Source: an uncultured bacterium (GTDB lineage: Bacteria > Pseudomonadota > Gammaproteobacteria > Burkholderiales > SG8-39). From it: a stretch of 64,000 nt of DNA. The stretch lies in NCBI GenBank assembly GCA_965233185.1, contig CBDDSA010000092.1, forward strand, positions 1,270 to 65,269. The letters run 5' to 3'. The notes under the pieces are model-generated. The model ran no database searches and had not been told where the DNA came from. It worked only from the letters and a program-made list of their open reading frames with translations. Shown one piece after another: positions 9,196 to 29,608 of this stretch. Position 1 is the stretch's first letter. Each line of letters opens with the position of its first letter. Both the position numbers and the translations under genes were made by a program.

Positions 9196-9981
9196 ATGGA
9201 CCTCACGGCGCAGCAGCTCGAGAAGTTCGAGCGCGACGGGTATCTCGTGTTTCCCGGGCTGTTCTCGCAGGCTGAAGTGGACGTGCTGCGGGCCGAGACA
9301 GCGCGCCTCGCGCAGGTCGAGGCCGAGACCGTGATCCGCGAGCGCACCGGCGGCGTGCGCTCCATCTTCCGGGTGCACGAGGCCGACGGCGCAACGCGCT
9401 CGGCGGCTTTTCGCGCGCTGGTGCGCTCTCCGCGCGTGCTGCGCCCCACCCTGCAGGCGCTGCGCACCGACGGCGTTTACGTGTACCACACCAAGATCAA
9501 CACCAAGCCGGCGATCGAGGGCACGGTGTGGATGTGGCACCAGGACTACGGCTCGTGGCAGCGCGACGGCTGCCCGCGGCCCGACATGGCGACCTTCGCC
9601 GTGATGATGACCGACTCGGTGGAGATGAACGGTGCGCTCTACGTGCTGCCCGGGAGCCACCGGCGGGGACGCATCGAGCCCTACTACGACGACAGCACCT
9701 CCTACAAGTTCTGGGCCATCCCGAAATCGCAGATGATCTCGATCCTGAGGGAATCGGAGAGCCCCGTTCCGATCGTCGGCCCGGCCGGGAGCGCGGTGCT
9801 TTTTCACTGCAACCTGCTGCACGCCTCGGGCCACAACCTTACGGCCGAGGACCGCTGGCACATTTACATCTCGTTCAACTGCTGCGCCAACGCGCCCCCC
9901 CTCGGGCCGGATGCGCGCCCGGACTGGGTCGTATCTCGCAACACGCAGCCGCTGCCGCTCGAGGCCGACGCCATGGTCTGA
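9196..9981 (+). CDS. phytanoyl-CoA dioxygenase (PhyH) family Fe(II)/2-oxoglutarate oxygenase, ectoine-hydroxylase-like
   Basis: 261-aa ORF containing WHQDYGSW (HxD) and LLHASGHN. Confidence 0.8.
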   Translation: MDLTAQQLEKFERDGYLVFPGLFSQAEVDVLRAETARLAQVEAETVIRERTGGVRSIFRVHEADGATRSAAFRALVRSPRVLRPTLQALRTDGVYVYHTKINTKPAIEGTVWMWHQDYGSWQRDGCPRPDMATFAVMMTDSVEMNGALYVLPGSHRRGRIEPYYDDSTSYKFWAIPKSQMISILRESESPVPIVGPAGSAVLFHCNLLHASGHNLTAEDRWHIYISFNCCANAPPLGPDARPDWVVSRNTQPLPLEADAMV

Positions 9982-11253: not shown

Positions 11254-11673
11254 ATGGCTTATGCCCAAGAACTGCTTCTCGTCTCGGCGCGCGACGCCGA
11301 AACGCTCGCCTCGGTGCTCGGCGAACGCGGACGCATGTCCGCGGACGCGGACGCCGCCAACGCCCTGGCCGACCTGCTGATGGAAGCGCAGCTCGTGCCC
11401 CACGAGCGGCTGCCGCAGGACCGCGTCGCCATGAATTCGCGCGTGACCTACGTGGAGGAGCCGGGCGGCGCGCGGCGCACCATCGTCCTGGTGCACCCGG
11501 CGCAGGCCGACGCCGCCGCCGGGCGCATTTCCGTGCTTTCACCGATCGGGCGCGCGCTCATCGGGCGGCAGCCCGGCGCCACCATCGACGCCGGCGGCCC
11601 GCTCGGCCGCAAGCTGCGCATCCGGGTGCTTTCGGCCGAGAGCGCGGCCGAGGAGGCGCCTCATGCATCCTGA
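11254..11673 (+). CDS. rnk: regulator of nucleoside diphosphate kinase (Rnk), GreA/GreB C-terminal-domain family
   Basis: 139-aa ORF. VAMNSRVTY and ISVLSPIGRALIG match the E. coli Rnk motifs VTMNSRV and LSVMAPVGAALLG as I recall them. Confidence 0.8.
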   Translation: MAYAQELLLVSARDAETLASVLGERGRMSADADAANALADLLMEAQLVPHERLPQDRVAMNSRVTYVEEPGGARRTIVLVHPAQADAAAGRISVLSPIGRALIGRQPGATIDAGGPLGRKLRIRVLSAESAAEEAPHAS

Positions 11674-12181
11674 CCTGCCGATCGAGCAGCTGGTGCGGCG
11701 CAAGGACACGCGCTTCCAGCTCGGCTTCGCCGCCGAGGCGCGCGAGCTGGTGCCCGAGCGGGACGAGTTCGTACTTTCCGGCTCCCGCCGCGGTCTGCAC
11801 GTGCTCGCCCGCAACGAGGACAGCCTTGCGACCCCGGTGGAAGTGCTGCGCGAAGTCTACGGGCCGAAGCTCGAGGTGCAGCCGCCGCACGTGCGCCTCA
11901 TCGAGGGCGTGCAGGTGCAGGAGCCGATCATGCACGTGCGCATCAGCCTGCAGACGCGCTTCCGCGAGGCGGCGAGGCAGGCGCTCGCCGCACGCAGCGC
12001 CACGCTGATGGAGGAGTACGCGCGCTCTTCGTATTGCGTGCTGCGCTACGAAGCGCCGCTCGCCGACCTGCTCGGCCTGCCGGCCGAGCTCGCCAAGCTC
12101 ACGCAGGGTGCTGCCAGGCACTGGATCGTGCTCAGCCACTATGCGCTGGTCACCCGGGATCCCGGCGGCACGGCCGCATGA
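11663..12181 (+). CDS. G-domain-less EF-G domain III + domain V-like protein (copy 1)
   Basis: 172-aa ORF that starts 11 nt before the rnk stop. The N-half resembles the end of EF-G domain III (...LEVQPPHVRLIEGV). The C-half resembles EF-G domain V (EPIMHVRI...EAPLADLLGL...LTQGAARH...SHYALV). Confidence 0.6.
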   Translation: MHPDLPIEQLVRRKDTRFQLGFAAEARELVPERDEFVLSGSRRGLHVLARNEDSLATPVEVLREVYGPKLEVQPPHVRLIEGVQVQEPIMHVRISLQTRFREAARQALAARSATLMEEYARSSYCVLRYEAPLADLLGLPAELAKLTQGAARHWIVLSHYALVTRDPGGTAA

Positions 12182-12208
12182 GCGGGCAAGGACTTGGAGA
12201 CGAGAATC

Positions 12209-12718
12209 ATGCAACTTGAGCTTCCACTGGAGCAGCTGGTGCGCCGCCACGGCGGCGCGTGCCAGCTCACCTTCGCCACCGAGGCCATGGACCGGGTTCC
12301 GCGGCGCGTCGAATACGCGCTCGCCCCCTCGCCGCTCGGCCTGCACCTGCTCGCGCGCGACGAGGATGCCCTGGAGGCGCCGCTCGGCGCGCTGCGCAAG
12401 AAGTACGGGCCCAGGCTGGACGTGGCGGCCCCGCGCGTACGGCTCATCGAAGGGGTGGGCACCGAGGAGCCGGTGATGCACGTCGAGATCTCGGTGGAGC
12501 GGCGTCACGAGGCAAAGGTGCGCCAGGCCATGGCGCGGCGCGGCGCCAGGCCGTGCGCGGATTTCGAGCGGCTGTTCTCGGTCATGCGCTACGAGGCGCG
12601 GCTGGCCGACCTGCTGGGCCTGCGCGAAGAGCTGGCGAGGCTGACCCGCGGCGCCGCGCGCCACTGGATGGCGCTCAGCCACTACGCGCATGTCGAACCC
12701 GCAAAGGAGACGAAATGA
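12209..12718 (+). CDS. G-domain-less EF-G domain III + domain V-like protein (copy 2)
   Basis: Paralogue of 11663..12181. ATG 12209 has GGAG upstream, and the ORF-track TTG at 12194 is an alternative start. Contains EPVMHVEISV...EARLADLLGL...LTRGAARHWMALSHYAHV. Confidence 0.6.
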   Translation: MQLELPLEQLVRRHGGACQLTFATEAMDRVPRRVEYALAPSPLGLHLLARDEDALEAPLGALRKKYGPRLDVAAPRVRLIEGVGTEEPVMHVEISVERRHEAKVRQAMARRGARPCADFERLFSVMRYEARLADLLGLREELARLTRGAARHWMALSHYAHVEPAKETK

Positions 12719-16638: not shown

Positions 16639-16890
16639 TCAAGACTTGCCTGCGGCCGGCTGGGCGGGCTGCAGTGGTCCCGACCCCGCTCCAGGCCGGC
16701 CCGGCCCGTAGGCCGTGCCCCAGCCCCACACTTCGGAGCCCTTGCCGCGGCGCAGCACCCGCTCGCGGTAGATATCGGCGATCACGTCGCCGTCACCGCC
16801 CAGCAGCGCCTTGGTGGAGCACATCTCGGCGCACGCCGGCAGCTTGCCCTCGGCCAGGCGGTTGCGGCCGTATTTCTTGAACTCGGCGTC
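16639..16890 (-). pseudogene. 3' remnant of a 4Fe-4S (formate dehydrogenase beta-like) subunit gene
   Basis: The frame reads ...DAEFKKYGRNRLAEGKLPACAEMCSTKALLGGDGDVIADIYRERVLRRG..., which is the last Cys-cluster region only. There is no start codon and the N-terminal clusters are absent. Confidence 0.6.
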
Positions 16891-17876
16891 GCGGGCGGAC
16901 GCGGCGCGGGGATGGCGAGCTGATAGAAGTGCAGCGCCGCGAGCTTGGATGTGACCACATCGGGCGTACCGCGCGTATCGAAAGAGCCGGTCTTCGCCGA
17001 CACGGGAAATTGCTGCGCGTCAGCCAGGCGCGCGTCGAAGAAGGTGCCCGAGCCGTGCTGCTGCGTCACCGCGACATAGGCGTTCCAGTACGGCACCGAC
17101 CCCGAGCCGGTCCAGGTGTGCAGGTTCACCCCGGCCAGGCCAAAGGCGGGCGGAATCAGCGTGCCTGCCTGGCCTCCATCCGGCCGGAAAGCCTTGCCGT
17201 CCTTGTCCAGCCAGGCGTCGTAGCGGCCCGGGCCCCAGCTCGCCAGCACTTTCCTCACCGTCGCCTCGTCGACCCCCAGCGCATCGGTGAACGGCTTGAG
17301 GTTCGGCGCGAGCGAGACGATGACGCCGACATTCAGATCGCGGTTGGCCCAGCCGTCCAGGCGCTTGCCTATGCCGGGCGCGAACGAGTCGTCCACGTTC
17401 GAATGGCACAGGGCGCATTGGGTGCCCAAAGACTTGATCCGGCCTGCCTCGTCGAACCGTCCCGTCAGTCCCACCACGGCGTTGAGCCTGAGCAGGGCGA
17501 GCGTCGTCGCCGGGTCGTCGAGATCCACTTTGCCGGCGCGGATGCGTGCTTTCAGCTCGGCCGGAAGCGCCTCCGCATCCACCTTGAGGCCGACCGCCAG
17601 CGCGGTCTTCGGGCTGACTCCCGCACCGACGCCGCCGTTTTGCGCACCGGCGATGGCCTTGTGCAACTGCAAGGCATCGCCGAAAAAGGCTTCCGAGCCA
17701 TAGGTGTCGAAGCGGAAGATGTTTCTGCCCGCCTCGAGCAGCCGCTGCGCATGGCCGTTGATCTGCCGATCGTTTTTCGACAGCTCCTTCTTGTCCGTGG
17801 CGCCGACCACGCCCAGCATGGCAAGCACGACCAGTGATGCTGCGCCCGCACCCGCGGCGACCGCTCCAACTTTCAT
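16782..17876 (-). CDS. cytochrome c peroxidase-like periplasmic haem protein, apparently 3'-truncated
   Basis: AAGGGAGG Shine-Dalgarno before ATG 17876, a signal peptide and a single CALCH haem motif. Homology-like sequence ends near LHFYQLAIPAPRPP (about 16895). The remaining tail is the off-frame Fe-S remnant. Confidence 0.6.
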   Translation of the reverse strand: MKVGAVAAGAGAASLVVLAMLGVVGATDKKELSKNDRQINGHAQRLLEAGRNIFRFDTYGSEAFFGDALQLHKAIAGAQNGGVGAGVSPKTALAVGLKVDAEALPAELKARIRAGKVDLDDPATTLALLRLNAVVGLTGRFDEAGRIKSLGTQCALCHSNVDDSFAPGIGKRLDGWANRDLNVGVIVSLAPNLKPFTDALGVDEATVRKVLASWGPGRYDAWLDKDGKAFRPDGGQAGTLIPPAFGLAGVNLHTWTGSGSVPYWNAYVAVTQQHGSGTFFDARLADAQQFPVSAKTGSFDTRGTPDVVTSKLAALHFYQLAIPAPRPPATPSSRNTAATAWPRASCRRAPRCAPPRRCWAVTAT

Positions 17877-17890
17877 ATGAACCTCCCTTT

Positions 17891-18583
17891 CTAGTAACCG
17901 TAGAACTGTTCGCTGCGCACGTCGTGGTCGCCGACGCCTGCGCCGCGCAGAAGGGTCTTCATCGCGCCCACCATGCCGGGGGGACCGGCGAGGTAGTAAA
18001 GCGGCGCGGCTGCGTCGGCGACGAAGCACTTCACCGTCTGCGCATCGACGAAGCCGTCGGCGTCGGTCATCCTGGCCAGCAGGCGGAAGCTGCCGTTTTG
18101 CTGCGCCAGGCGCTGCAGCTCGGCGAGGAATGCCGCATCCTGCGGCCGGCGGTTGGAGTAGAGCAGGTACAAGGGCCGGGCGAGCCCGTCATGCGCGGCC
18201 TGCCGCAGCATGCTCAGGAAAGGCGTGATGCCGATGCCGCCGGCGATGAATACCGCGGCCCGGGAAGCCTCCTCGTGCAGCGTCATCAGGCCGCGCGGCC
18301 CCTTGAGCCGGATGCGGGAACCGGCGGGCAGCGCCTTCAGCGCGCGCTTGAACGCGCTGCCTTCGCGCATGCGCGTGGCGATGAGGAGCTCGCCCTCGCA
18401 AGGGGCGCCCGCCAGCGAGAAGATGCGCTGCGCGCTGTTCGGCTCGGGCGGCGGCTCGAGCAGGGAAAGGGTCACCGATTGCCCGGCCTTGAAGTCGAAG
18501 CCCGCCGGCCTGGACAGGTGGAACGCCAGGGTGCCCGCGGCGACCTCTTCGGCGCCCCGGACGAGGACCTCGTGCGAGGTCAA
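17891..18583 (-). CDS. FNR-family FAD/NAD(P)-binding oxidoreductase
   Basis: 230-aa ORF with RIFSLAG (FAD site) and FIAGGIGITPF (NAD(P) site). Confidence 0.8.
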   Translation of the reverse strand: MTSHEVLVRGAEEVAAGTLAFHLSRPAGFDFKAGQSVTLSLLEPPPEPNSAQRIFSLAGAPCEGELLIATRMREGSAFKRALKALPAGSRIRLKGPRGLMTLHEEASRAAVFIAGGIGITPFLSMLRQAAHDGLARPLYLLYSNRRPQDAAFLAELQRLAQQNGSFRLLARMTDADGFVDAQTVKCFVADAAAPLYYLAGPPGMVGAMKTLLRGAGVGDHDVRSEQFYGY

Positions 18584-18825
18584 AACGAGCGGATGCCGGG
18601 AAGCGCTTCCTTCAGCTCGTGGCGCTTTCCTTCTTCGTCATACCAGTAAAGCTTGCCGGGCTCCTCGCCGGCCGTGAGCTCATGGGAGCTGTCGCAGAAC
18701 GGCTGGTTCTCCGACAGCCCGCACTTGCACAGCCACTGCTCCTTGCCGTCGATATTGAAGGGGTGGGTTCGGTTGCGGTGCGCTTTACGATGCGTGCCAT
18801 GCCTGGCTCCTTGGAGGTTAGGCAT
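18580..18825 (-). CDS. CDGSH iron-sulfur domain protein (probable true start 18800, with a one-base frameshift)
   Basis: CKCGLSENQPFCDSSH motif. The ORF-track ATG 18825 lacks a Shine-Dalgarno and lies inside lysR. ATG 18800 has AAGGAG 6 nt upstream and reads MARIVKRTATEP, but it is out of frame at the G4 run 18760-18763. Confidence 0.7.
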   Translation of the reverse strand: MPNLQGARHGTHRKAHRNRTHPFNIDGKEQWLCKCGLSENQPFCDSSHELTAGEEPGKLYWYDEEGKRHELKEALPGIRSF

Positions 18826-19714
18826 TGGATGACGCGCGCCGCCGCCGCGTTCCGGAAGATGACTTCTTCACCGCGGCGGCCACGTGCCGCAGCCCGGCGA
18901 GCGCAGGCGTGATGATTTTCGGGTCCGCGCTTTCCGGATAGACCGCGTAGGCGGGAAACAGGAACTCGGGCGCGCCGCGGACGAGCTTCAGGCGGCCGCT
19001 GCGCAGGTGCGGCCCGACCGCCTGCGCGCGGAAGTAGCCCGAGCCCCCTGCCCGCAGGATGAACTGCAGCGCGAGCGGCCCCAGGTCGACGTAGGTGCCG
19101 GCATTGGAGAGCTGCGGATACGTGAGGTTGTGGTGCGCGGCGAAGTCCGGCCCCCAGTCGACGTAGACGTAGTCCTCGGGGTGCGGCGTGGCCGCCTTGC
19201 GCCGCGCGGTGGTCACCAGCACCAGCTTTTCCTTCATCAGCAGCTCGATCTTCAGGCCGGGACGGTATTGCGGCGCGTACATGACCGCGATGTCGATGAC
19301 GCCCTCGGCGACCTGGCTCATCAGCTCCTGCGGCAGGCGCACCTGCGCGCGCACCGCGAGCTGGGTGGCGCTGCGGCGCATCCACACCAGCCAGTCCAGC
19401 AGGAACGGATTCCACAGGCTGAGCTCGCCGCCGACCGACACCACGGCGCGCAGGCCGGGCGGCACCGCCACCTGGTGGCGCGCGCGCTCCCACATCTGCA
19501 CCAGCAGCGGCGCGTAGCGCATGAACTGCTCCCCCGCGGGGGTAAGCGAGGCGCCCGCCTTGTTGCGCACGAAGAGCTTCGCGCCCAGCAGCTCTTCGAG
19601 GGTCTGCACGCGCACGCTCACCGCCGTCTGCGTGACGTGCAGGCGCTCGGCCGCGCGCACGAAGTTGCCGCTGTGCACGATCTCGAGGAAGGTCCGCGCC
19701 AGTGCGATGTCCAT
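18818..19714 (-). CDS. LysR-family transcriptional regulator
   Basis: N-terminal HTH (MDIALARTFLEIVHSGNFVRAAERLHVTQTAVSVRVQTLE). ATG 19714 is preferred over the ORF-track TTG at 19720. Confidence 0.85.
   Translation of the reverse strand: MDIALARTFLEIVHSGNFVRAAERLHVTQTAVSVRVQTLEELLGAKLFVRNKAGASLTPAGEQFMRYAPLLVQMWERARHQVAVPPGLRAVVSVGGELSLWNPFLLDWLVWMRRSATQLAVRAQVRLPQELMSQVAEGVIDIAVMYAPQYRPGLKIELLMKEKLVLVTTARRKAATPHPEDYVYVDWGPDFAAHHNLTYPQLSNAGTYVDLGPLALQFILRAGGSGYFRAQAVGPHLRSGRLKLVRGAPEFLFPAYAVYPESADPKIITPALAGLRHVAAAVKKSSSGTRRRRASSNA
18824..18853 (-). promoter_or_regulatory. putative ECF-sigma promoter GGAAC-N17-CATCCAAT driving the CDGSH operon
   Basis: The minus strand reads cGGAACgcggcggcggcgcgcgtCATCCAATgc. 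The same motif occurs at 27035-27064 and 27744-27774. Confidence 0.55.
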
Positions 19715-19732
19715 TCCCAAGTATGCGCAAAG

Positions 19733-20163: not shown

Positions 20164-20858
20164 AAGCCAAGGACATCATGACCACGCCGGTCATCAGCGT
20201 GACGCCCGACACCACGGTGAGCGAGATCGCCGTCTTGCTGTTCGAGCGGCGCATCAGCGCCGTGCCGGTGGTCAAGGACGGCCGCCTGGTCGGCATCGTG
20301 AGCGAAGCCGACCTGCTGCATCGCCACGAGCTGGGCACCGATTGCATCGCGCAGTCGGGCTCGTGGTGGCTGCGCCTGTTCAGCGCCGACCGCTCCATCG
20401 AGGAATACATCAAGTCGCACGCGCGCCGGGCGCGCGACATCATGACGCGCGAGGTGGCGACGGTCGCGCCCGAGACGCCGGTGACCGAGGTCGCCACCGT
20501 GCTCGAGCGCCGCGGGGTCAAGCGCGTTCCGGTCGTGGAGGCCGGGCGGCTGGCCGGCATTGTCAGCCGGGCAAACCTGGTGCAGGCGCTGGCCCGCACG
20601 CCGCAACCCGCGGTCCGTGCAACGCGCCCCAGCGACGAGGCGATCCGCGCCCAGCTGCTGGCGGAGCTCGAGCGCCAGCCGTGGTGGCGGCGCGGGATGT
20701 CGAGCGTCTATGTCAGCGAGGGCGTGGTCATGTTCTCGGGCGCCATCGGCGAGGAGGAAGAGCGTCACGCGGCGCGGGTTGCCGCCGAGAACATCGCCGG
20801 CGTGCGGCGGATCGAACACAGCCGCCACATGTACCGCGACATGCCCTCGATGGTATGA
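20160..20858 (+). CDS. CBS-pair plus BON domain protein
   Basis: 232-aa ORF with two CBS repeats (IMTTPVISV..., IMTREVATV...) and a C-terminal BON-like segment. Confidence 0.75.
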   Translation: MKAKDIMTTPVISVTPDTTVSEIAVLLFERRISAVPVVKDGRLVGIVSEADLLHRHELGTDCIAQSGSWWLRLFSADRSIEEYIKSHARRARDIMTREVATVAPETPVTEVATVLERRGVKRVPVVEAGRLAGIVSRANLVQALARTPQPAVRATRPSDEAIRAQLLAELERQPWWRRGMSSVYVSEGVVMFSGAIGEEEERHAARVAAENIAGVRRIEHSRHMYRDMPSMV

Positions 20859-21343
20859 ATCCCGAGGCCTTCGCGCGGCTCATGCGGCGCCACAACCGGA
20901 CGCTGTTCCGCACCGCGCGCGCCATCCTGCGCGACGGCGCCGCGGCGGAGGACGCGCTGCAGGAAGCGTGGCTGCGCGCCTACCATGCGATCGATACGTT
21001 TCGCGGCGAGGCAAAGCTCGGTACCTGGCTGGTGCGCATCGTCGTCAACGAGGCGCTGGCACGCCGCCGGAAGGACCAGCGCCATGTCCCGGTCGTGCAG
21101 GAAACCGAGCAAGCCATCCTCAAGCAGGACGAGCCCGAAGGCCTGGCGCAGCGCAGCGAGCTGCGGCGCCGGCTGGAAGCGAAGATTCGCCTCCTGCCGG
21201 ATCCCTTCCGTGCGGTGTTCATGCTGCGCGCAGTGGAAGAGCTTTCGGTCCACGAGACCGCGGCCGCATTGCATATCCCTGAGTCGACGGTCCGAACCCG
21301 GTTTTTCCGCGCGCGCAGAGAGCTGCGCGCGCGGCTCTCCTGA
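20855..21343 (+). CDS. ECF-type RNA polymerase sigma-70 factor (short paralogue)
   Basis: ATGA overlap with the CBS gene. 162 codons. Sigma2 region DALQEAWLRAYHAIDTFRGEAKLGTWLVRIVVNEA and sigma4 region LSVHETAAALHIPESTVRTRFFRARREL. Confidence 0.85.
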   Translation: MNPEAFARLMRRHNRTLFRTARAILRDGAAAEDALQEAWLRAYHAIDTFRGEAKLGTWLVRIVVNEALARRRKDQRHVPVVQETEQAILKQDEPEGLAQRSELRRRLEAKIRLLPDPFRAVFMLRAVEELSVHETAAALHIPESTVRTRFFRARRELRARLS

Positions 21344-25540: not shown

Positions 25541-25681
25541 TCATGCCTCCTTCGGGGTGATTGGCCGGCGGGATATTGCGCTGCTCATGTGACGCACGCT
25601 AGCGCGTCGCACAGCTATTCGATGAGACCCGCCCTCCGCGCGTTCCGGGAACGCCCGAAGCGCCGCGGTCATCCACTTCGT

Positions 25682-26971
25682 ATGGACCTCGCGGACCCGC
25701 CGAGTCAGGAAATGCAGCTACGCGACCAGGTCCGCCAGCTCATGCTGCGCAATGTCAAGAACGGCTATTCCAGCCTGCTGGGCCAGGACTACTGCTATGT
25801 CGCGCCGGCGCTGAAGCCCTACCCGTTCCAGTGGTTCTGGGACACCTGCTTTCACGTCGTGATCCTGGCGCGGCTGGGCGAACATGACCTCGCCAAGCGC
25901 AATCTGCGCAGCCTCTTTGCCATGCAAGCCGACAACGGCTTCGTCGGGCACATGATTTTCTGGAACCAGGTGCTGCCGAAGCGCCGCACCGACATCATGC
26001 AGGCGCGCCCAAGCTGGCAGTCGCTGCGCCCTCACATGAGCGCGCTGATACAGCCACCTTTCGCCGCTCAGGCGCTGCATGCCTTGTACGAAGCGTGCGG
26101 CGATCGGGTCTATCTCGGCGAAATGTACGCCCGAGTCCGGCGCCACCATGAATGGCTGGCGAAGAACCGCGACTTCGACGGCGACGGGCTCATGACGATC
26201 ATCAGCCCCTTCGAGTCCGGCATGGACTGGAAGGCGTCCTATGACCCGGCGCTTGGCTACGCAAGGCGCACAACGCCGCGGCGCTTGTTGTATGGCTCGA
26301 AGCTTTACTGGAAGGCGGGGGGCGTCGACCTCGGCAATTTCCTGCTGGGCTACGACCTGCAGCGCATCAAGGCGCGCGGCAGGTTCCGGGTGAAGGACGC
26401 GGGCTTCAACGCAATTTACGCCGTCGACCTGCATTGCATGGAGAAGCTCGCAGTACTCGCCGGCGATGACCCCGAGATATTCGCCGAAAGGCGCCGCCGG
26501 CTCGTAAAAAGCATGGTGGAGCTGATGTACGACGCCGGGTCCGCGGCGTTCTACGACGTGCAGGAGCCGGGCTCAAAGCAAATCCGCGTGCTGACGCCGA
26601 CCATCTTCTATCCGCTCGCCATCGAAGAGCTGGACCGCGACCTCGCGAAGCGGGTAGTCGATGCACATTTCGATAGCAAAAGCGAATTTGCGGCGCTGCT
26701 GCCCATGCCTTCGGTCGCGATGCGCGAGCCGGCGTTCTTCCCCGGCGAAACGCCGTTCATCTGGCGCGGACCGACATGGGCGCCCGCCAACTGGTTCCTT
26801 TACCACGCCCTGAAGAAGCGGGGCTTCGACGGGAACGCCGAGCGGCTGCGCGGCTCGTTAAGCGCCCTGGTCGAAAAGAGCGGCTTCCGCGAATACTACG
26901 ACCCGTCCAGCGGCGAGGGGCACGGCGCGCGCGAGTTCACTTGGTCGGGTCTCCTCGTGGACATGCGCTGA
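25682..26971 (+). CDS. (alpha/alpha)6-barrel glycoside hydrolase, MGH1/GH63-like
   Basis: Frame of ORF 25439..26971. The start is ambiguous between 25622 and 25682. Contains QWFWDTCFH and a C-terminal EYYDP.SGEG...FTWSG. Confidence 0.6.
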   Translation: MDLADPPSQEMQLRDQVRQLMLRNVKNGYSSLLGQDYCYVAPALKPYPFQWFWDTCFHVVILARLGEHDLAKRNLRSLFAMQADNGFVGHMIFWNQVLPKRRTDIMQARPSWQSLRPHMSALIQPPFAAQALHALYEACGDRVYLGEMYARVRRHHEWLAKNRDFDGDGLMTIISPFESGMDWKASYDPALGYARRTTPRRLLYGSKLYWKAGGVDLGNFLLGYDLQRIKARGRFRVKDAGFNAIYAVDLHCMEKLAVLAGDDPEIFAERRRRLVKSMVELMYDAGSAAFYDVQEPGSKQIRVLTPTIFYPLAIEELDRDLAKRVVDAHFDSKSEFAALLPMPSVAMREPAFFPGETPFIWRGPTWAPANWFLYHALKKRGFDGNAERLRGSLSALVEKSGFREYYDPSSGEGHGAREFTWSGLLVDMR

Positions 26972-27034: not shown

Positions 27035-27064
27035 GGAACGGGAACGGCAAAGCGCGCATCCAAT
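27035..27064 (+). promoter_or_regulatory. putative autoregulatory ECF promoter GGAAC-N17-CATCCAAT
   Basis: cGGAACgggaacggcaaagcgcgCATCCAATgg. The -10 element overlaps ATG 27063, so the predicted transcription start falls near ATG 27069 (possibly leaderless). Confidence 0.55.
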
Positions 27065-27752
27065 GGCCATGAAAACCGCCATTCGCGAGGAAGCCGCCGA
27101 GCGGCTGACCGACACGGAGCTCATCCACCGGACCCAGGCGGGCGACATGCGGGCCCTGGAGGCCCTGATGCGCCGCCATAACCGCACGCTTTACCGGACG
27201 GCGCGAGCCATCCTGCGGGACGACGCCGAGGCCGAGGATGTCGTCCAGGAAGCCTATCTCAAGGCCTACAAGGCGCTCGGATCGTTCCGCGCCGAGTCCA
27301 AGCTGTCCACCTGGCTGGTGCGCATCGCCGCCAACAAGGCGCTCATGCGCCGCCGCAAGAACGCCCGCACCGCGGCCGTGGTGCCGATGGATGCGGCTGC
27401 CGCGGGCGCGCAATGGGAAGAACCTATGTCCGACGAAGCCGGTCCCGAACGCAATGCCCTCGGCGGCGAAATGCGCGAGCTGCTGGAAAAGCGCATCGAT
27501 GCCCTGCCCGATGGCTACCGCGCGGTGTTCGTGCTGCGCGCGCTGGAAGAGCTCACCGTGGAGGAAACGGCCGCGGCGCTGGACATTCCGGAGGCGACGG
27601 TGCGCACGCGCTACTTTCGCGCGCGCGGCCTGCTGCGCGAATCGCTGGCACGCGACATCGACCGCAGCCTCGAGGATGCCTTCGCCTTCGCCGGCGCGCG
27701 CTGCGATCGCATCGTCACCAACGTGCTCGAGAGGATCAAGGCGGGAACGTAA
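27063..27752 (+). CDS. ECF-type sigma-70 factor with a roughly 55-aa C-terminal extension
   Basis: The sigma2 and sigma4 regions are paralogous to 20855..21343. The extra tail is ESLARDIDRSLEDAFAFAGARCDRIVTNVLERIKAGT. The start may be ATG 27069. Confidence 0.85.
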   Translation: MAMKTAIREEAAERLTDTELIHRTQAGDMRALEALMRRHNRTLYRTARAILRDDAEAEDVVQEAYLKAYKALGSFRAESKLSTWLVRIAANKALMRRRKNARTAAVVPMDAAAAGAQWEEPMSDEAGPERNALGGEMRELLEKRIDALPDGYRAVFVLRALEELTVEETAAALDIPEATVRTRYFRARGLLRESLARDIDRSLEDAFAFAGARCDRIVTNVLERIKAGT

Positions 27753-27774
27753 GCGGGTCGCTCGTGCATCCAAT
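27744..27774 (+). promoter_or_regulatory. putative ECF promoter GGAAC-N18-CATCCAAT for the ferritin-like/cytochrome c operon
   Basis: gGGAACgtaagcgggtcgctcgtgCATCCAATgt. The -35 element overlaps the sigma stop codon. AAGGAA Shine-Dalgarno at 27795-27800. Confidence 0.55.
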
Positions 27775-27805
27775 GTGTGCGTCAACAACCACACAAGGAA
27801 ATGAC

Positions 27806-28375
27806 ATGAGCTTCTTCGCGTTCTCTTCCCCGCTCGTCGCACGGCGCGCGTTCCTCGGCAAATCCGGCCTTGTGCTTTCCGGCACCGCCATCGCGCTGCT
27901 CGCCGGGCGCGACGTCCTGGCGGCAAAGGCAGGCGGGTCCACCGCGGCCGACGCCAACATCCTGAACACCGCGCTCGCCGCCGAGCTCGAGGCGGTGGCG
28001 GCCTACCAGGTGGGCGCCGAAAGCGGCCTGCTGGAAAAACCGGTGCTCGCGCTCGCCGGCCAGTTCCAGGGCCACCACAAGGAGCACGCCGACGTGCTGG
28101 CGAAGACCATCCGCCAGCTCGGCGGCAAGCCGGTCGACGCGAAGAAGAAGTACGACTTCCCGACCAGCGCACTGAAGGACCAGGCCGATGTGCTGCGCTT
28201 CGCCGCGAGCCTGGAGAAAGGCGCCGTCAGCGCCTATCTGGGCGCGGTGCCGCTGTTCCGCAGCCGCGAGCTGTCCAAGGCGGCCGCCAGCATCCTGGGC
28301 GACGAGGCCATGCACTGGGCGGTGCTGCGCAACGCGCTGGGCGAAAATCCGGTTCCTTCGGCGTTCGTCTCGTAA
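27806..28375 (+). CDS. Tat-exported ferritin-like domain protein
   Basis: Frame of ORF 27413..28375. Twin-arginine signal ARRAFLGKSG. Ferritin-like helices (LNTALAAELEAVAAYQ, HHKEHADVL, LEKGAVSAYLG, GDEAMHWAVL). Confidence 0.7.
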   Translation: MSFFAFSSPLVARRAFLGKSGLVLSGTAIALLAGRDVLAAKAGGSTAADANILNTALAAELEAVAAYQVGAESGLLEKPVLALAGQFQGHHKEHADVLAKTIRQLGGKPVDAKKKYDFPTSALKDQADVLRFAASLEKGAVSAYLGAVPLFRSRELSKAAASILGDEAMHWAVLRNALGENPVPSAFVS

Positions 28376-28716
28376 TGCTCGAAGGTGCAGTCCTGGTCGC
28401 TGCACTGGCGCTTGGCGATGCCAAGGCGGGCGAGGACGTGTACTCGCGCTGCCTTGGCTGCCATTCCCTGGAGTACAACCGCACCGGCCCGAAGCATTGC
28501 GGCGTCCTCGGGCGGCGCGCCGGCAGCGTGCCCGGCTACGAGTACTCGCCCGCGATGAAGCGCTCGGGCATCGTGTGGAGCGAAAAGGCGCTGGAGCGCT
28601 TCCTCGCCGACCCGGGCAAGACCGTGCCCGGCACCACCATGACCTACGCAGGCGTTTCCGATCCGGCGGACCGGTCGCACCTCATTGCATACCTGAAAAA
28701 ACAACGCTGCGAATGA
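28375..28716 (+). CDS. class I c-type cytochrome
   Basis: 113-aa ORF with a signal-like N-terminus, CLGCH haem motif and a distal Met region (GTTMTYAG). Confidence 0.8.
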   Translation: MLEGAVLVAALALGDAKAGEDVYSRCLGCHSLEYNRTGPKHCGVLGRRAGSVPGYEYSPAMKRSGIVWSEKALERFLADPGKTVPGTTMTYAGVSDPADRSHLIAYLKKQRCE

Positions 28717-28747: not shown

Positions 28748-29608
28748 TCAGGCGGGCAGCGTGACGCAGGCGTCCTCGTACTTGCCCTCGCCCATCGTGC
28801 CGGGCTCGAAGATCTCGCGCTCGCGGATCCACTTGAAGGAGTCCTCGAACACTTCCTTGGTGTAGGGCTCGAACACGATGCGCTCGCCCGGCCCCCAGCG
28901 GCGCGTATCGATCTGCGTCAGGAAGCGCTGCGGGAACTCGTTGCGGTAGTGCCTGGTGTAGAGCTCGGGCCGCAGGTCGATGTCGCGCTGCGCGAGGCGC
29001 AGGGCGGCGAAGTATTTCTTCAGGTCCGAGGGCGAAGGTTCGCCGGTGATCATGGTGGCCATCATGAAAGTGGTGTCGATGACCTTGCGGAAGCCGAGCT
29101 GCTCGAGGAAGTAGTACGGCCCGGAGAACAGCGACGCGGCCGGGACCTCCCGGTCGATGAGCTTCTCCAGGCGCGAGAACAGGATGCCGTCGGCGAACGA
29201 CAGCTTGATTTCGTTCAACGGCAGGTACTGCTCGAGCGCCTGGATGGTCGAATAGTGGCTGCCCGACTGGTAGCCCACCGAGATGGGCACGCCGCGCAAG
29301 TCCTCCGGCGTGCGGATGGGCGATTCGGGCGGCACGAACACTCCGGCGGGCGACACCGAGTAGCAATCGGCGTAGAGCTTGCCGTGTCCCGCAGAGGCGG
29401 CCACGTTGACCGTCCAGTGGCAGGCGCAACTCACGTTGGTGTCGCGCCCTTTCTCGATGTTCTGGTAGGCGCCTACCTTGTCGGGCGTCCTGTGGTTCTC
29501 GAACACGCCGCGGAACTCGTAGTCCAGCCCCTGCGCCTTGAAGTAGCCCTTTTCCTCGGCGACCCACTCGTGCAGGCGGAAATGCGGGGTGATGGCGAAC
29601 TTAGGCAT
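28748..29608 (-). CDS. cytoplasmic NMT1/THI5-like (periplasmic-binding-protein fold) protein
   Basis: 286-aa ORF with no signal peptide. Paralogous to 50764..51642 (shared CAC.W and PISVG..GSH motifs). Overlaps the upstream oxygenase gene by 8 nt. Confidence 0.6.
   Translation of the reverse strand: MPKFAITPHFRLHEWVAEEKGYFKAQGLDYEFRGVFENHRTPDKVGAYQNIEKGRDTNVSCACHWTVNVAASAGHGKLYADCYSVSPAGVFVPPESPIRTPEDLRGVPISVGYQSGSHYSTIQALEQYLPLNEIKLSFADGILFSRLEKLIDREVPAASLFSGPYYFLEQLGFRKVIDTTFMMATMITGEPSPSDLKKYFAALRLAQRDIDLRPELYTRHYRNEFPQRFLTQIDTRRWGPGERIVFEPYTKEVFEDSFKWIREREIFEPGTMGEGKYEDACVTLPA

Follow-up and report, generated by a model that had tools for sequence, protein, structure and literature searches.

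What drives transcription of a gene whose only visible promoter-like signal lies inside the gene before it? The question is raised by a stretch of 64,000 nucleotides from an uncultured bacterium of the Burkholderiales (contig CBDDSA010000092.1; the whole stretch is called the window below). On its minus strand, the end of lysR, a LysR-type regulator gene, contains a two-block motif directed at a gene for a CDGSH [2Fe-2S] protein, which is followed by genes for an FNR-like reductase and a haem protein. An earlier note on this DNA took the motif for the third copy in the window of a promoter read by an extracytoplasmic function (ECF) sigma factor. Comparison with published sites and with related loci makes it likely, in our judgement, that the element at 18853-18823 (minus strand), here called P_cdgsh, is a promoter dependent on a sigma factor of group ECF29, that it drives the CDGSH and FNR-like genes and, in this genome, also the dihaem gene, and that it is part of an autoregulated regulon.

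The motif at the end of lysR

Direct reading of the window gives cGGAACGCGGCGGCGGCGCGCGTCATCCAATGcc for the minus strand from 18854 to 18822. The -35 element GGAAC (18849-18853, minus strand) lies within the lysR codons Gly-Thr, and is followed after 17 nucleotides by the -10 element CATCCAATG (18823-18831, minus strand); CATCCAAT occupies 18831-18824, and a c precedes GGAAC at 18854. The whole motif, GGAAC-N17-CATCCAATG, stands 22 nucleotides upstream of the ATG at 18800 with its Shine-Dalgarno sequence AAGGAG (18807-18812, minus strand), and the usual geometry of ECF promoters, with initiation 6-10 nucleotides past the -10, would put the transcription start at 18815-18819 (minus strand). The overlap with the last lysR codons is as the earlier note described it: the stop codon TAA of lysR, at 18820-18818, comes 3 nucleotides past the -10. 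The region of P_cdgsh was also scanned for other signals, and holds no sigma-70-like promoter, no minus-strand terminator and no Rfam family; the z-score of its RNA fold, -0.4, is not unusual.

The sigma group to which such a motif belongs has been described. Members of ECF29 have a C-terminal extension of about 30 amino acids with a conserved RCE/D motif and no anti-sigma factor, and none has been experimentally addressed (Casas-Pastor et al. 2021, PMC7826278). The cross-species consensus, -35 GGGAAC and -10 GCATCCAA, is quoted by Lang et al. 2018 (PMC6180224) from Rhodius et al. 2013, a paper whose main text makes no mention of ECF29. Two sites in Sinorhizobium meliloti, GGGAACATTTCCGGAGATAGGGCATCCAATA and GGGAACGTTTCGAGCCGCGAAGCATCCAAAG, upstream of rpoE8 and SMb20593, have the form GGGAAC-N15-GCATCCAA (PMC6180224). 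The cGGAAC-N17-CATCCAATG of P_cdgsh agrees with this consensus: the S. meliloti promoters and those of the window have the same -35, GG(G)AAC, and the same -10, (G)CATCCAA(T), and differ in the spacer between GGAAC and CATCC, which is 17 nucleotides in the window and 16 in S. meliloti, one extra base in the window.

The pattern GGAAC-N15-19-CATCCA has 4 matches in the 64-kb window where 0.08 are expected, and none of 100 shuffled sequences reaches 4. A weight matrix built on 15 sites from other genomes only (matrix A) was then used to scan the window. P_cdgsh scores 31.1 bits, which is both the maximum of the matrix and the top score in the window; four other sites score 23-29 bits, none falls between 14 and 23, and shuffled sequence yields 0.3 sites at 14 bits or more. 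The window has five ECF29-type sites in total, for about 0.1 expected by chance. Both the counts and the matrix uphold the motif that the earlier note had seen, but not its tally of three, which lacked a pair at 25646-25616 (minus strand) and 25648-25678 (plus strand). Nor is the spacing of 17 nucleotides, correct for P_cdgsh, common to both promoters at the sigma locus: the site at 27744 has 18.

Conservation in related loci

Close homologues of the dihaem protein number in the thousands in soil metagenomes. Six contigs with such homologues (L001-L006) show the same neighbourhood, with GGAAC-N17-CATCCAATG upstream of a CDGSH gene of 73 amino acids. A scan with the CDGSH alignment, restricted to one genome per species, gave 13 orthologous loci at 64-77% identity, all of which belong to uncultured Burkholderiales or other Betaproteobacteria, apart from one Acidiferrobacteraceae genome. 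To these loci we applied a second matrix (matrix B), built on the window sites and the two published S. meliloti sites only, and independent of the loci that it scores. The outcome sustains what the earlier note led one to look for: in relatives that carry the sigma factor, the motif is kept upstream of CDGSH orthologues at 10 of the 14 evaluable loci, with scores of 18.8-28.5 bits and at 17-24 nucleotides from the CDGSH ATG, while the 95th percentile for random 300-nucleotide windows of the same loci is 8.0 bits. At one further locus, L013, the end of the contig cuts the locus and the -10 is retained. When 12 loci are aligned, no column is invariant outside the -35, the -10 and the start codon; between the -10 and the start codon they share an AGGAG-like block, at the same position as the Shine-Dalgarno sequence of the window. 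The assignment of P_cdgsh as a putative promoter is well supported by this comparison.

The same loci tell to which gene the element belongs. In the window it falls within the last 12 codons of lysR (289-299), which encode the non-conserved tail GTRRRRASSNA. In seven loci (L007, L008, L011, L012, L014, L016 and L018) it is intergenic, behind various upstream genes. The upstream LysR-type gene of L006 is only 28% identical to the window LysR, yet it also reads through the motif. Conversely, the L016 orthologue of the window LysR (75% identity) is not beside the CDGSH gene and ends in ..GLRHVAKLQQKGSRSRR, without the GT-RRRR-ASSNA tail. In the window this tail lies beyond the Pfam LysR_substrate domain, and its codons end in A or T (GGA, TCA, AAT) in a gene with 93% G or C at third codon positions; it is thus the promoter that would constrain the protein tail, and not the reverse. 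As judged from these alignments, the candidate promoter is that of the CDGSH unit and not of lysR, whose frame simply runs through it in this lineage. Read-through from lysR into the CDGSH unit, the second control proposed in the earlier note, is possible, as there is no terminator between them; many relatives have no upstream LysR gene, and in most relatives read-through is not needed.

Gene order varies around this core. The FNR-like gene adjoins the CDGSH gene in 13 of 15 non-redundant related loci, and none is found downstream of it in L009 and L010. In L001, L016, L017 and L019, the sigma-Ferritin_2-cytochrome c genes, the CDGSH-FNR pair and the dihaem gene are found within 10 kb, in shuffled orders ("Ferritin_2" stands, in these loci and in those of the exact search below, for tblastn matches, that is, for homology at the DNA level only). 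An NMT1-like gene, at 28748-29608 (minus strand) beside the cytochrome c gene in the window, is directly upstream of the CDGSH promoter in L011, L012, L014 and L018, the gene set being reshuffled between lineages.

Finally, an exact search of metagenome contigs for GGAACG-N16-CATCCAATG gave at least 126 sites in 120 loci, which were classified by the first downstream gene; the counts that follow are those among the matches listed. Thirty-nine sites are upstream of ECF29-like sigma genes, and the RC[D/E] tail is present in 31 of the 32 that are full length, the exception being L165, with ADCVR. Five are upstream of CDGSH genes, with 43-70% identity, and 5-6 upstream of dihaem genes. Since CDGSH genes are recovered by the motif alone, the link between the two recurs well outside the lineage of the window. 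Nine sites precede secreted DUF4142-type genes (L087, L088, L089, L095, L098, L161, L167, L182 and L197), one of which was typed by a Pfam scan and the others by their common N-terminal sequence. Two FolE and two FolE2-like GTP cyclohydrolase genes (L103, L131, L139, L205), one GH15 trehalase-like gene (L134), one Ferritin_2 gene, one DUF2231 gene and three genes of secreted helical proteins of no Pfam family complete the set. Chance seems to account for a further 25 sites, in contigs of low GC content, and for a set of sites that fall within coding regions. The DUF4142, GTP cyclohydrolase and GH15 genes suggest a regulon broader than redox and haem proteins.

The downstream genes and competing explanations

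The CDGSH gene (18580-18800, minus strand) was said in the earlier note to begin at the ATG at 18800, after AAGGAG. Homology confirms this start, but in the window the ATG is out of frame with the CDGSH domain, which continues in the frame of an open reading frame at 18580-18825. A deletion of 1 nucleotide in or beside the C-run 18763-18760 makes the frame from ATG 18800 stop at 18612, so that the gene is not intact from its conserved start: it is one base short with respect to L001, L006 and P0122, an intact cluster mate. With one base inserted at the C-run, a protein of 73 amino acids is obtained (MARIVKRTATEPTPFNIDGKEQW...), which can be aligned over its whole length with P0122 (MARIVKRTATGPIPFNIDGKEQW...) and with the proteins of L001 and L006. 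The ATG at 18825, start of the 81-amino-acid open reading frame P0121 on the source contig, was rejected as the CDGSH start: it lies within the -10, the N-terminus that it would add has no similarity to relatives, and the 73-amino-acid cluster mates start with MARIVKRT... A frameshift problem throughout the assembly was also ruled out, as tblastn aligns each of the other L001 genes with the window as one unbroken segment.

The CDGSH domain itself is clear: Pfam zf-CDGSH (PF09360) matches at 36.9 bits for a cut-off of 29.5, with the ligand motif CKCGLSENQPFCDSSH, Cys-Cys-Cys-His, and the sequence matches in the PDB are 3tbn, 3tbm and 3tbo. The protein resembles the type 4 bacterial CDGSH proteins (RsCISD, PDB 3TBN; PMC3174974) in its single domain of about 70 amino acids with 3Cys-1His ligands. 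It differs from them in its motif, which is CDSSH and not CDGSH, and in the coupling of its gene to an FNR-like reductase; for the solved proteins of this type no regulatory context is described.

The FNR-like flavin reductase gene (17891-18583, minus strand, 230 amino acids) has a TTG start that overlaps the CDGSH stop as TTGA, the 4-nucleotide overlap recorded in the earlier note. Its product matches Pfam NAD_binding_1 at 1e-14; residues 28-228 align, over both lobes, to the reductase modules of MmoC, Hmp and BenC (partial NCBIfam matches), and Pfam FAD_binding_6 is not matched. After a gap of 14 nucleotides comes the gene of a secreted dihaem cytochrome c (16893-17876, minus strand), with the predicted Shine-Dalgarno sequence AAGGGAGG at 17889-17882, a start at ATG 17876 and a first haem site CALCH. 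The three genes have the make-up of an operon: they share a strand, the first two overlap by TTGA, the haem gene follows after 14 nucleotides that contain a Shine-Dalgarno sequence, and the minus strand has no terminator there. Relatives often have the haem gene apart from the other two, with an ECF29 site of its own (L006, L011).

The window copy of the haem gene is truncated. Homologues have 444-458 amino acids and match up to about residue 340; the last 115 or so, including the second CxxCH, are missing. What follows, at 16639-16892 (minus strand), is a C-terminal fragment of an FdhB-like 4Fe-4S protein (translation ..LPACAEMCSTKALLGGDGDV..), fused to the haem gene at a junction placed at 16893-16900 by a switch of frame in the plot of third-position GC content and by the end, near 16893, of the similarity to L001. 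Position 16782, which the earlier note gave as the end of the haem gene, is instead the stop of this chimeric frame, after which an FdhC-like cytochrome b is found; the NCBI source contig has the same chimeric product of 364 amino acids. The genes that lie between these two points in L001 (patatin, TetR, a 315-amino-acid sigma factor, aconitase, DUF3305 and FdhA), some 9-10 kb in relatives, are absent from the whole window. The junction is either a deletion or a mis-join of the metagenome assembly. The earlier note had overlooked both the CDGSH frameshift and this truncation and fusion, along with two of the promoter copies and a sigma paralogue divergent from lysR.

The same note called the haem protein cytochrome-c-peroxidase-like, a label that does not stand as a result, and is a lead. 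The window fragment matches no Pfam or NCBIfam family. Its full-length homologues have a C-terminal cytochrome c domain, and it is only there, in the part missing from the window, that matches appear, all below threshold: CCP_MauG (PF03150) at 14-17 bits for a cut-off of 25.6, and DHOR (PF06537) at 11-14 bits for a cut-off of 22. Profile matches in the PDB, to dihaem peroxidase and to the gamma subunit of hydrazine synthase, have E = 0.12-1.2, none significant, a sequence search of the PDB likewise yields no significant match, and an AlphaFold2 model built with 37 close homologues has a mean pLDDT of 32 and no usable fold.

Several of the observations weigh against an ECF29-dependent promoter at this place. 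All the orthologous loci come from related lineages, and relatedness accounts for part of the conservation of the site. The -10 of L017 is a variant (CGTCGTATG); in L010 the CDGSH gene is unlinked and has no site; and L009 and L015 have no CDGSH site of their own, the gene being, in the first, the fourth of the sigma-Ferritin_2-cytochrome c unit, without FNR-like gene, and in the second, with its FNR-like gene, placed after the sigma gene in one co-directional cluster. In S. meliloti, 126-fold overexpression of RpoE8, an ECF29 sigma factor, activated no target, in spite of a perfect site at SMb20593 (PMC6180224). A matching motif is thus not proof of activity, and ECF29 sigma factors probably need an activation step beyond overexpression. 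Lastly, of the three genes downstream, two are damaged in the window, where other genes are intact: this could reflect decay of the CDGSH-FNR-dihaem unit or errors of the assembly.

The last two points, and the overlap of lysR with the motif with no terminator between them, are what favours the alternative that survives best, namely that most expression of the CDGSH unit comes from the end of the lysR transcript, or from an undetected housekeeping promoter, the motif being a silent relic in this genome. However, the site reaches the maximal score of matrix A, and the distance from motif to CDGSH gene is fixed also in lineages where no gene reads through it. LysR-type genes are, besides, usually weakly expressed. 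We regard this explanation as improbable.

It could also be supposed that a DNA-binding regulator uses the element as its operator, or that the element acts in cis as part of the leader RNA. Nothing specific speaks for it; the ATG conserved behind CATCCA and the high GC content of the spacer are details that have no explanation. The element, which consists of two blocks at a fixed spacing of 17 nucleotides, lacks dyad symmetry and has the very sequence of a published sigma consensus, and among the matches listed it stands directly upstream of 39 sigma genes; as to an RNA, neither Rfam nor the fold offers any sign of one. This makes the supposition very unlikely. Harder still to credit, and already largely refuted, is the idea that the motif is conserved as coding sequence of a functional LysR tail: it is in frame in lysR, and the LysR genes of the window and L001, and of L006, read it in the same frame, Gly-Thr...Ser-Asn, but the tail is lacking in the L016 orthologue, the L006 regulator is of low identity, and the tail lies outside the substrate domain in atypical codons and has no counterpart in the at least seven loci where the motif is intergenic. 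A chance match, finally, could appeal to a spacer that is unremarkable in a genome of 68% GC, but is already refuted by the counts, the maximal score and the orthologous conservation, and deserves practically no weight.

Sigma factors, regulon and significance

The promoter reading calls for an ECF29 sigma factor, and the window has a gene for one, sigA (27069-27752, plus strand, 227 amino acids). Its product matches the NCBIfam equivalog NF008888 over its full length (298 bits, cut-off 204), and its only Pfam domains are Sigma70_r2 (7e-19) and Sigma70_r4_2 (4e-15). The aligned C-terminal tail, DAFAFAGARCDRIV, of about 30 amino acids and with the RCD motif, brings the sequence to its end in ..DAFAFAGARCDRIVTNVLERIKAGT; its Cys212 (codon 27702-27704) is the sole cysteine of the protein and corresponds to the invariant C of the RC[D/E] motif. 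By inspection only, which an unrecognised anti-sigma gene could escape, no anti-sigma gene lies beside sigA, whose neighbours are a GH63-like hydrolase and a pair formed by a Ferritin_2 protein with a twin-arginine (TAT) signal and a cytochrome c. With its RC[D/E] tail, regions 2 and 4 only, and no adjacent anti-sigma gene, sigA is assigned by sequence to group ECF29.

A second ECF29-like sigma gene, sigB (20855-21343, plus strand), encodes 162 amino acids, with no tail and no cysteine. Its region 2 and 4 helices are close to those of sigA, so that either sigma factor could read these promoters. It is the last gene of a DUF488-CBS/BON-sigB unit divergent from lysR (18818-19714, minus strand; Pfam HTH_1 and LysR_substrate; open reading frame 18818-19720, probable start 19714). 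The 80-nucleotide region between lysR and DUF488 contains a conserved AT-rich block, TCAAGTAAAACGAAACTTATT.G.CTTT.AATCCA, a candidate LysR operator; the divergent arrangement and this block suggest a cascade in which LysR acts on sigB, and sigB in turn on the ECF29 promoters. Relatives have a third ECF29-like sigma gene (in L001 at 11372-12319, minus strand), whose product of 315 amino acids bears a C-terminal GreA_GreB Pfam domain, and which lies beside the dihaem gene; L001 also has an ECF29-type site at 12529-12555 (plus strand), 116 nucleotides upstream of the aconitase gene.

The four other sites of the window are distributed as follows. The putative promoter of sigA (27035-27065, plus strand), on which autoregulation is proposed, has a -10 that ends 4 nucleotides before ATG 27069; the same holds in L001 and suggests a leaderless mRNA. 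The site with the 18-nucleotide spacer (27744-27775, plus strand) overlaps the stop codon of sigA and is followed by the genes for Ferritin_2 (27806-28375) and cytochrome c (28375-28716). The last two form a back-to-back pair at 25616-25678, whose core, GTTCCGGGAAC, is formed by the -35 boxes: the fifth and weaker copy of the motif, CATCGAAT, at 25646-25616 (minus strand), points to a DUF2231-SDR pair (from 25540 downward, minus strand), and the other, at 25648-25678 (plus strand), to the GH63-like (glucosylglycerate-hydrolase-like) gene at 25682-26971 (plus strand). A divergent pair is also found in the metagenome locus L089 (9379-9409, minus strand, and 9412-9442, plus strand), with DUF4142 and sigma genes. 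The five sites of the window thus precede the sigma gene, the Ferritin_2 and cytochrome c genes, the CDGSH-FNR-dihaem unit, the DUF2231-SDR genes and the GH63-like gene.

The resemblance with S. meliloti extends to the arrangement of these sites: in both systems the sigma gene is itself preceded by one copy and has another at its stop codon, ahead of the gene that follows, and there is no anti-sigma gene. The neighbours of the sigma gene differ, being Ferritin_2 and cytochrome c in the window, and SMb20593 and amicyanin in S. meliloti. Also unlike the S. meliloti sites, P_cdgsh lies within a LysR-type gene, at its 3' end, and a CDGSH-FNR-dihaem target has not been reported for the ECF29 group.

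Two other sigma systems invite comparison. The general-stress promoters of Alphaproteobacteria read by EcfG (ECF15) have the form GGAAC-N16-17-CGTT. They share with the window the -35 GGAAC, the length of the spacer and a similarly mixed regulon of small stress-type proteins, but EcfG is of a different sigma group and its -10 is CGTT, not CATCCAAT; the neighbourhood of the window sigma genes shows no genes of a PhyR/NepR partner switch, and sigA has an on-board C-terminal tail instead. CorE and CorE2 (ECF238/ECF44), like ECF29, have no anti-sigma factor, and a short C-terminal extension with conserved cysteine is proposed to regulate the sigma factor directly (PMC8999054); theirs is a Cys-rich domain with a CXC linker, whereas ECF29 has the single invariant cysteine of its RC[D/E] motif. 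Bradyrhizobium EcfQ, considered as a studied member of ECF29, was rejected, as it belongs to ECF33.

Under the promoter reading, RNA polymerase carrying sigA, encoded 8 kb away, would start transcription at about 18815-18819; the tail-less sigB may also use P_cdgsh. The transcript would have a leader of some 15-20 nucleotides with AAGGAG, then code for the CDGSH [2Fe-2S] protein and a translationally coupled FNR-like reductase, and, in this genome, would also cover the dihaem cytochrome gene 14 nucleotides further on. Initiation at P_cdgsh, its exact position, the sigma paralogue that acts and the inducing signal are what we infer. Given that Cys212 is the sole cysteine of sigA and the invariant residue of its tail, a tail acting as a redox- or ligand-sensing element is an attractive hypothesis.

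The common regulon of redox, iron-sulfur and haem proteins drawn in the earlier note holds, the same motif being found at the sigma gene, at the Ferritin_2/cytochrome c pair and, in relatives, at the dihaem gene. Its interpretation as a response to oxidative or iron stress is only one of the possible readings, for the motif is also found at genes for DUF4142 and DUF2231 proteins, GTP cyclohydrolase, SDR proteins and hydrolases of GH15/GH63 type: redox or metal stress would suit the gene set, in which there are, however, compatible-solute-type hydrolases and GTP cyclohydrolases as well. It is tempting to go further and to conjecture that ECF29 sigma factors are self-contained sensors, by means of the RC[D/E] cysteine, which control the gene that encodes them, four-helix-bundle proteins of the periplasm (Ferritin_2/DUF4439 or DUF4142) together with a c-type cytochrome, CDGSH with an FNR-like reductase, a secreted dihaem cytochrome, GTP cyclohydrolase I (FolE or FolE2) and DUF2231-SDR, the promoter embedded in lysR being one arm of this regulon and sigB a second, LysR-controlled input to the same promoters. 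Taken jointly, as one picture, this conjecture is tentative and rather doubtful.

The promoter class and its consensus are already published, the sigma group is known, and an alternative-sigma promoter that overlaps the end of an upstream gene is an ordinary element; what is new is the CDGSH-FNR-dihaem target and the broader comparative regulon. ECF29 is a widespread group of proteobacterial sigma factors, and the main value of P_cdgsh is as a first clue to what it controls. This locus and its relatives give a concrete set of candidate targets (CDGSH-FNR, dihaem cytochrome, Ferritin_2/DUF4142, cytochrome c and GTP cyclohydrolase), and the single tail cysteine is a candidate sensory residue. 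With both in hand, the function of ECF29 sigma factors, and the way in which they are switched on, become approachable questions.

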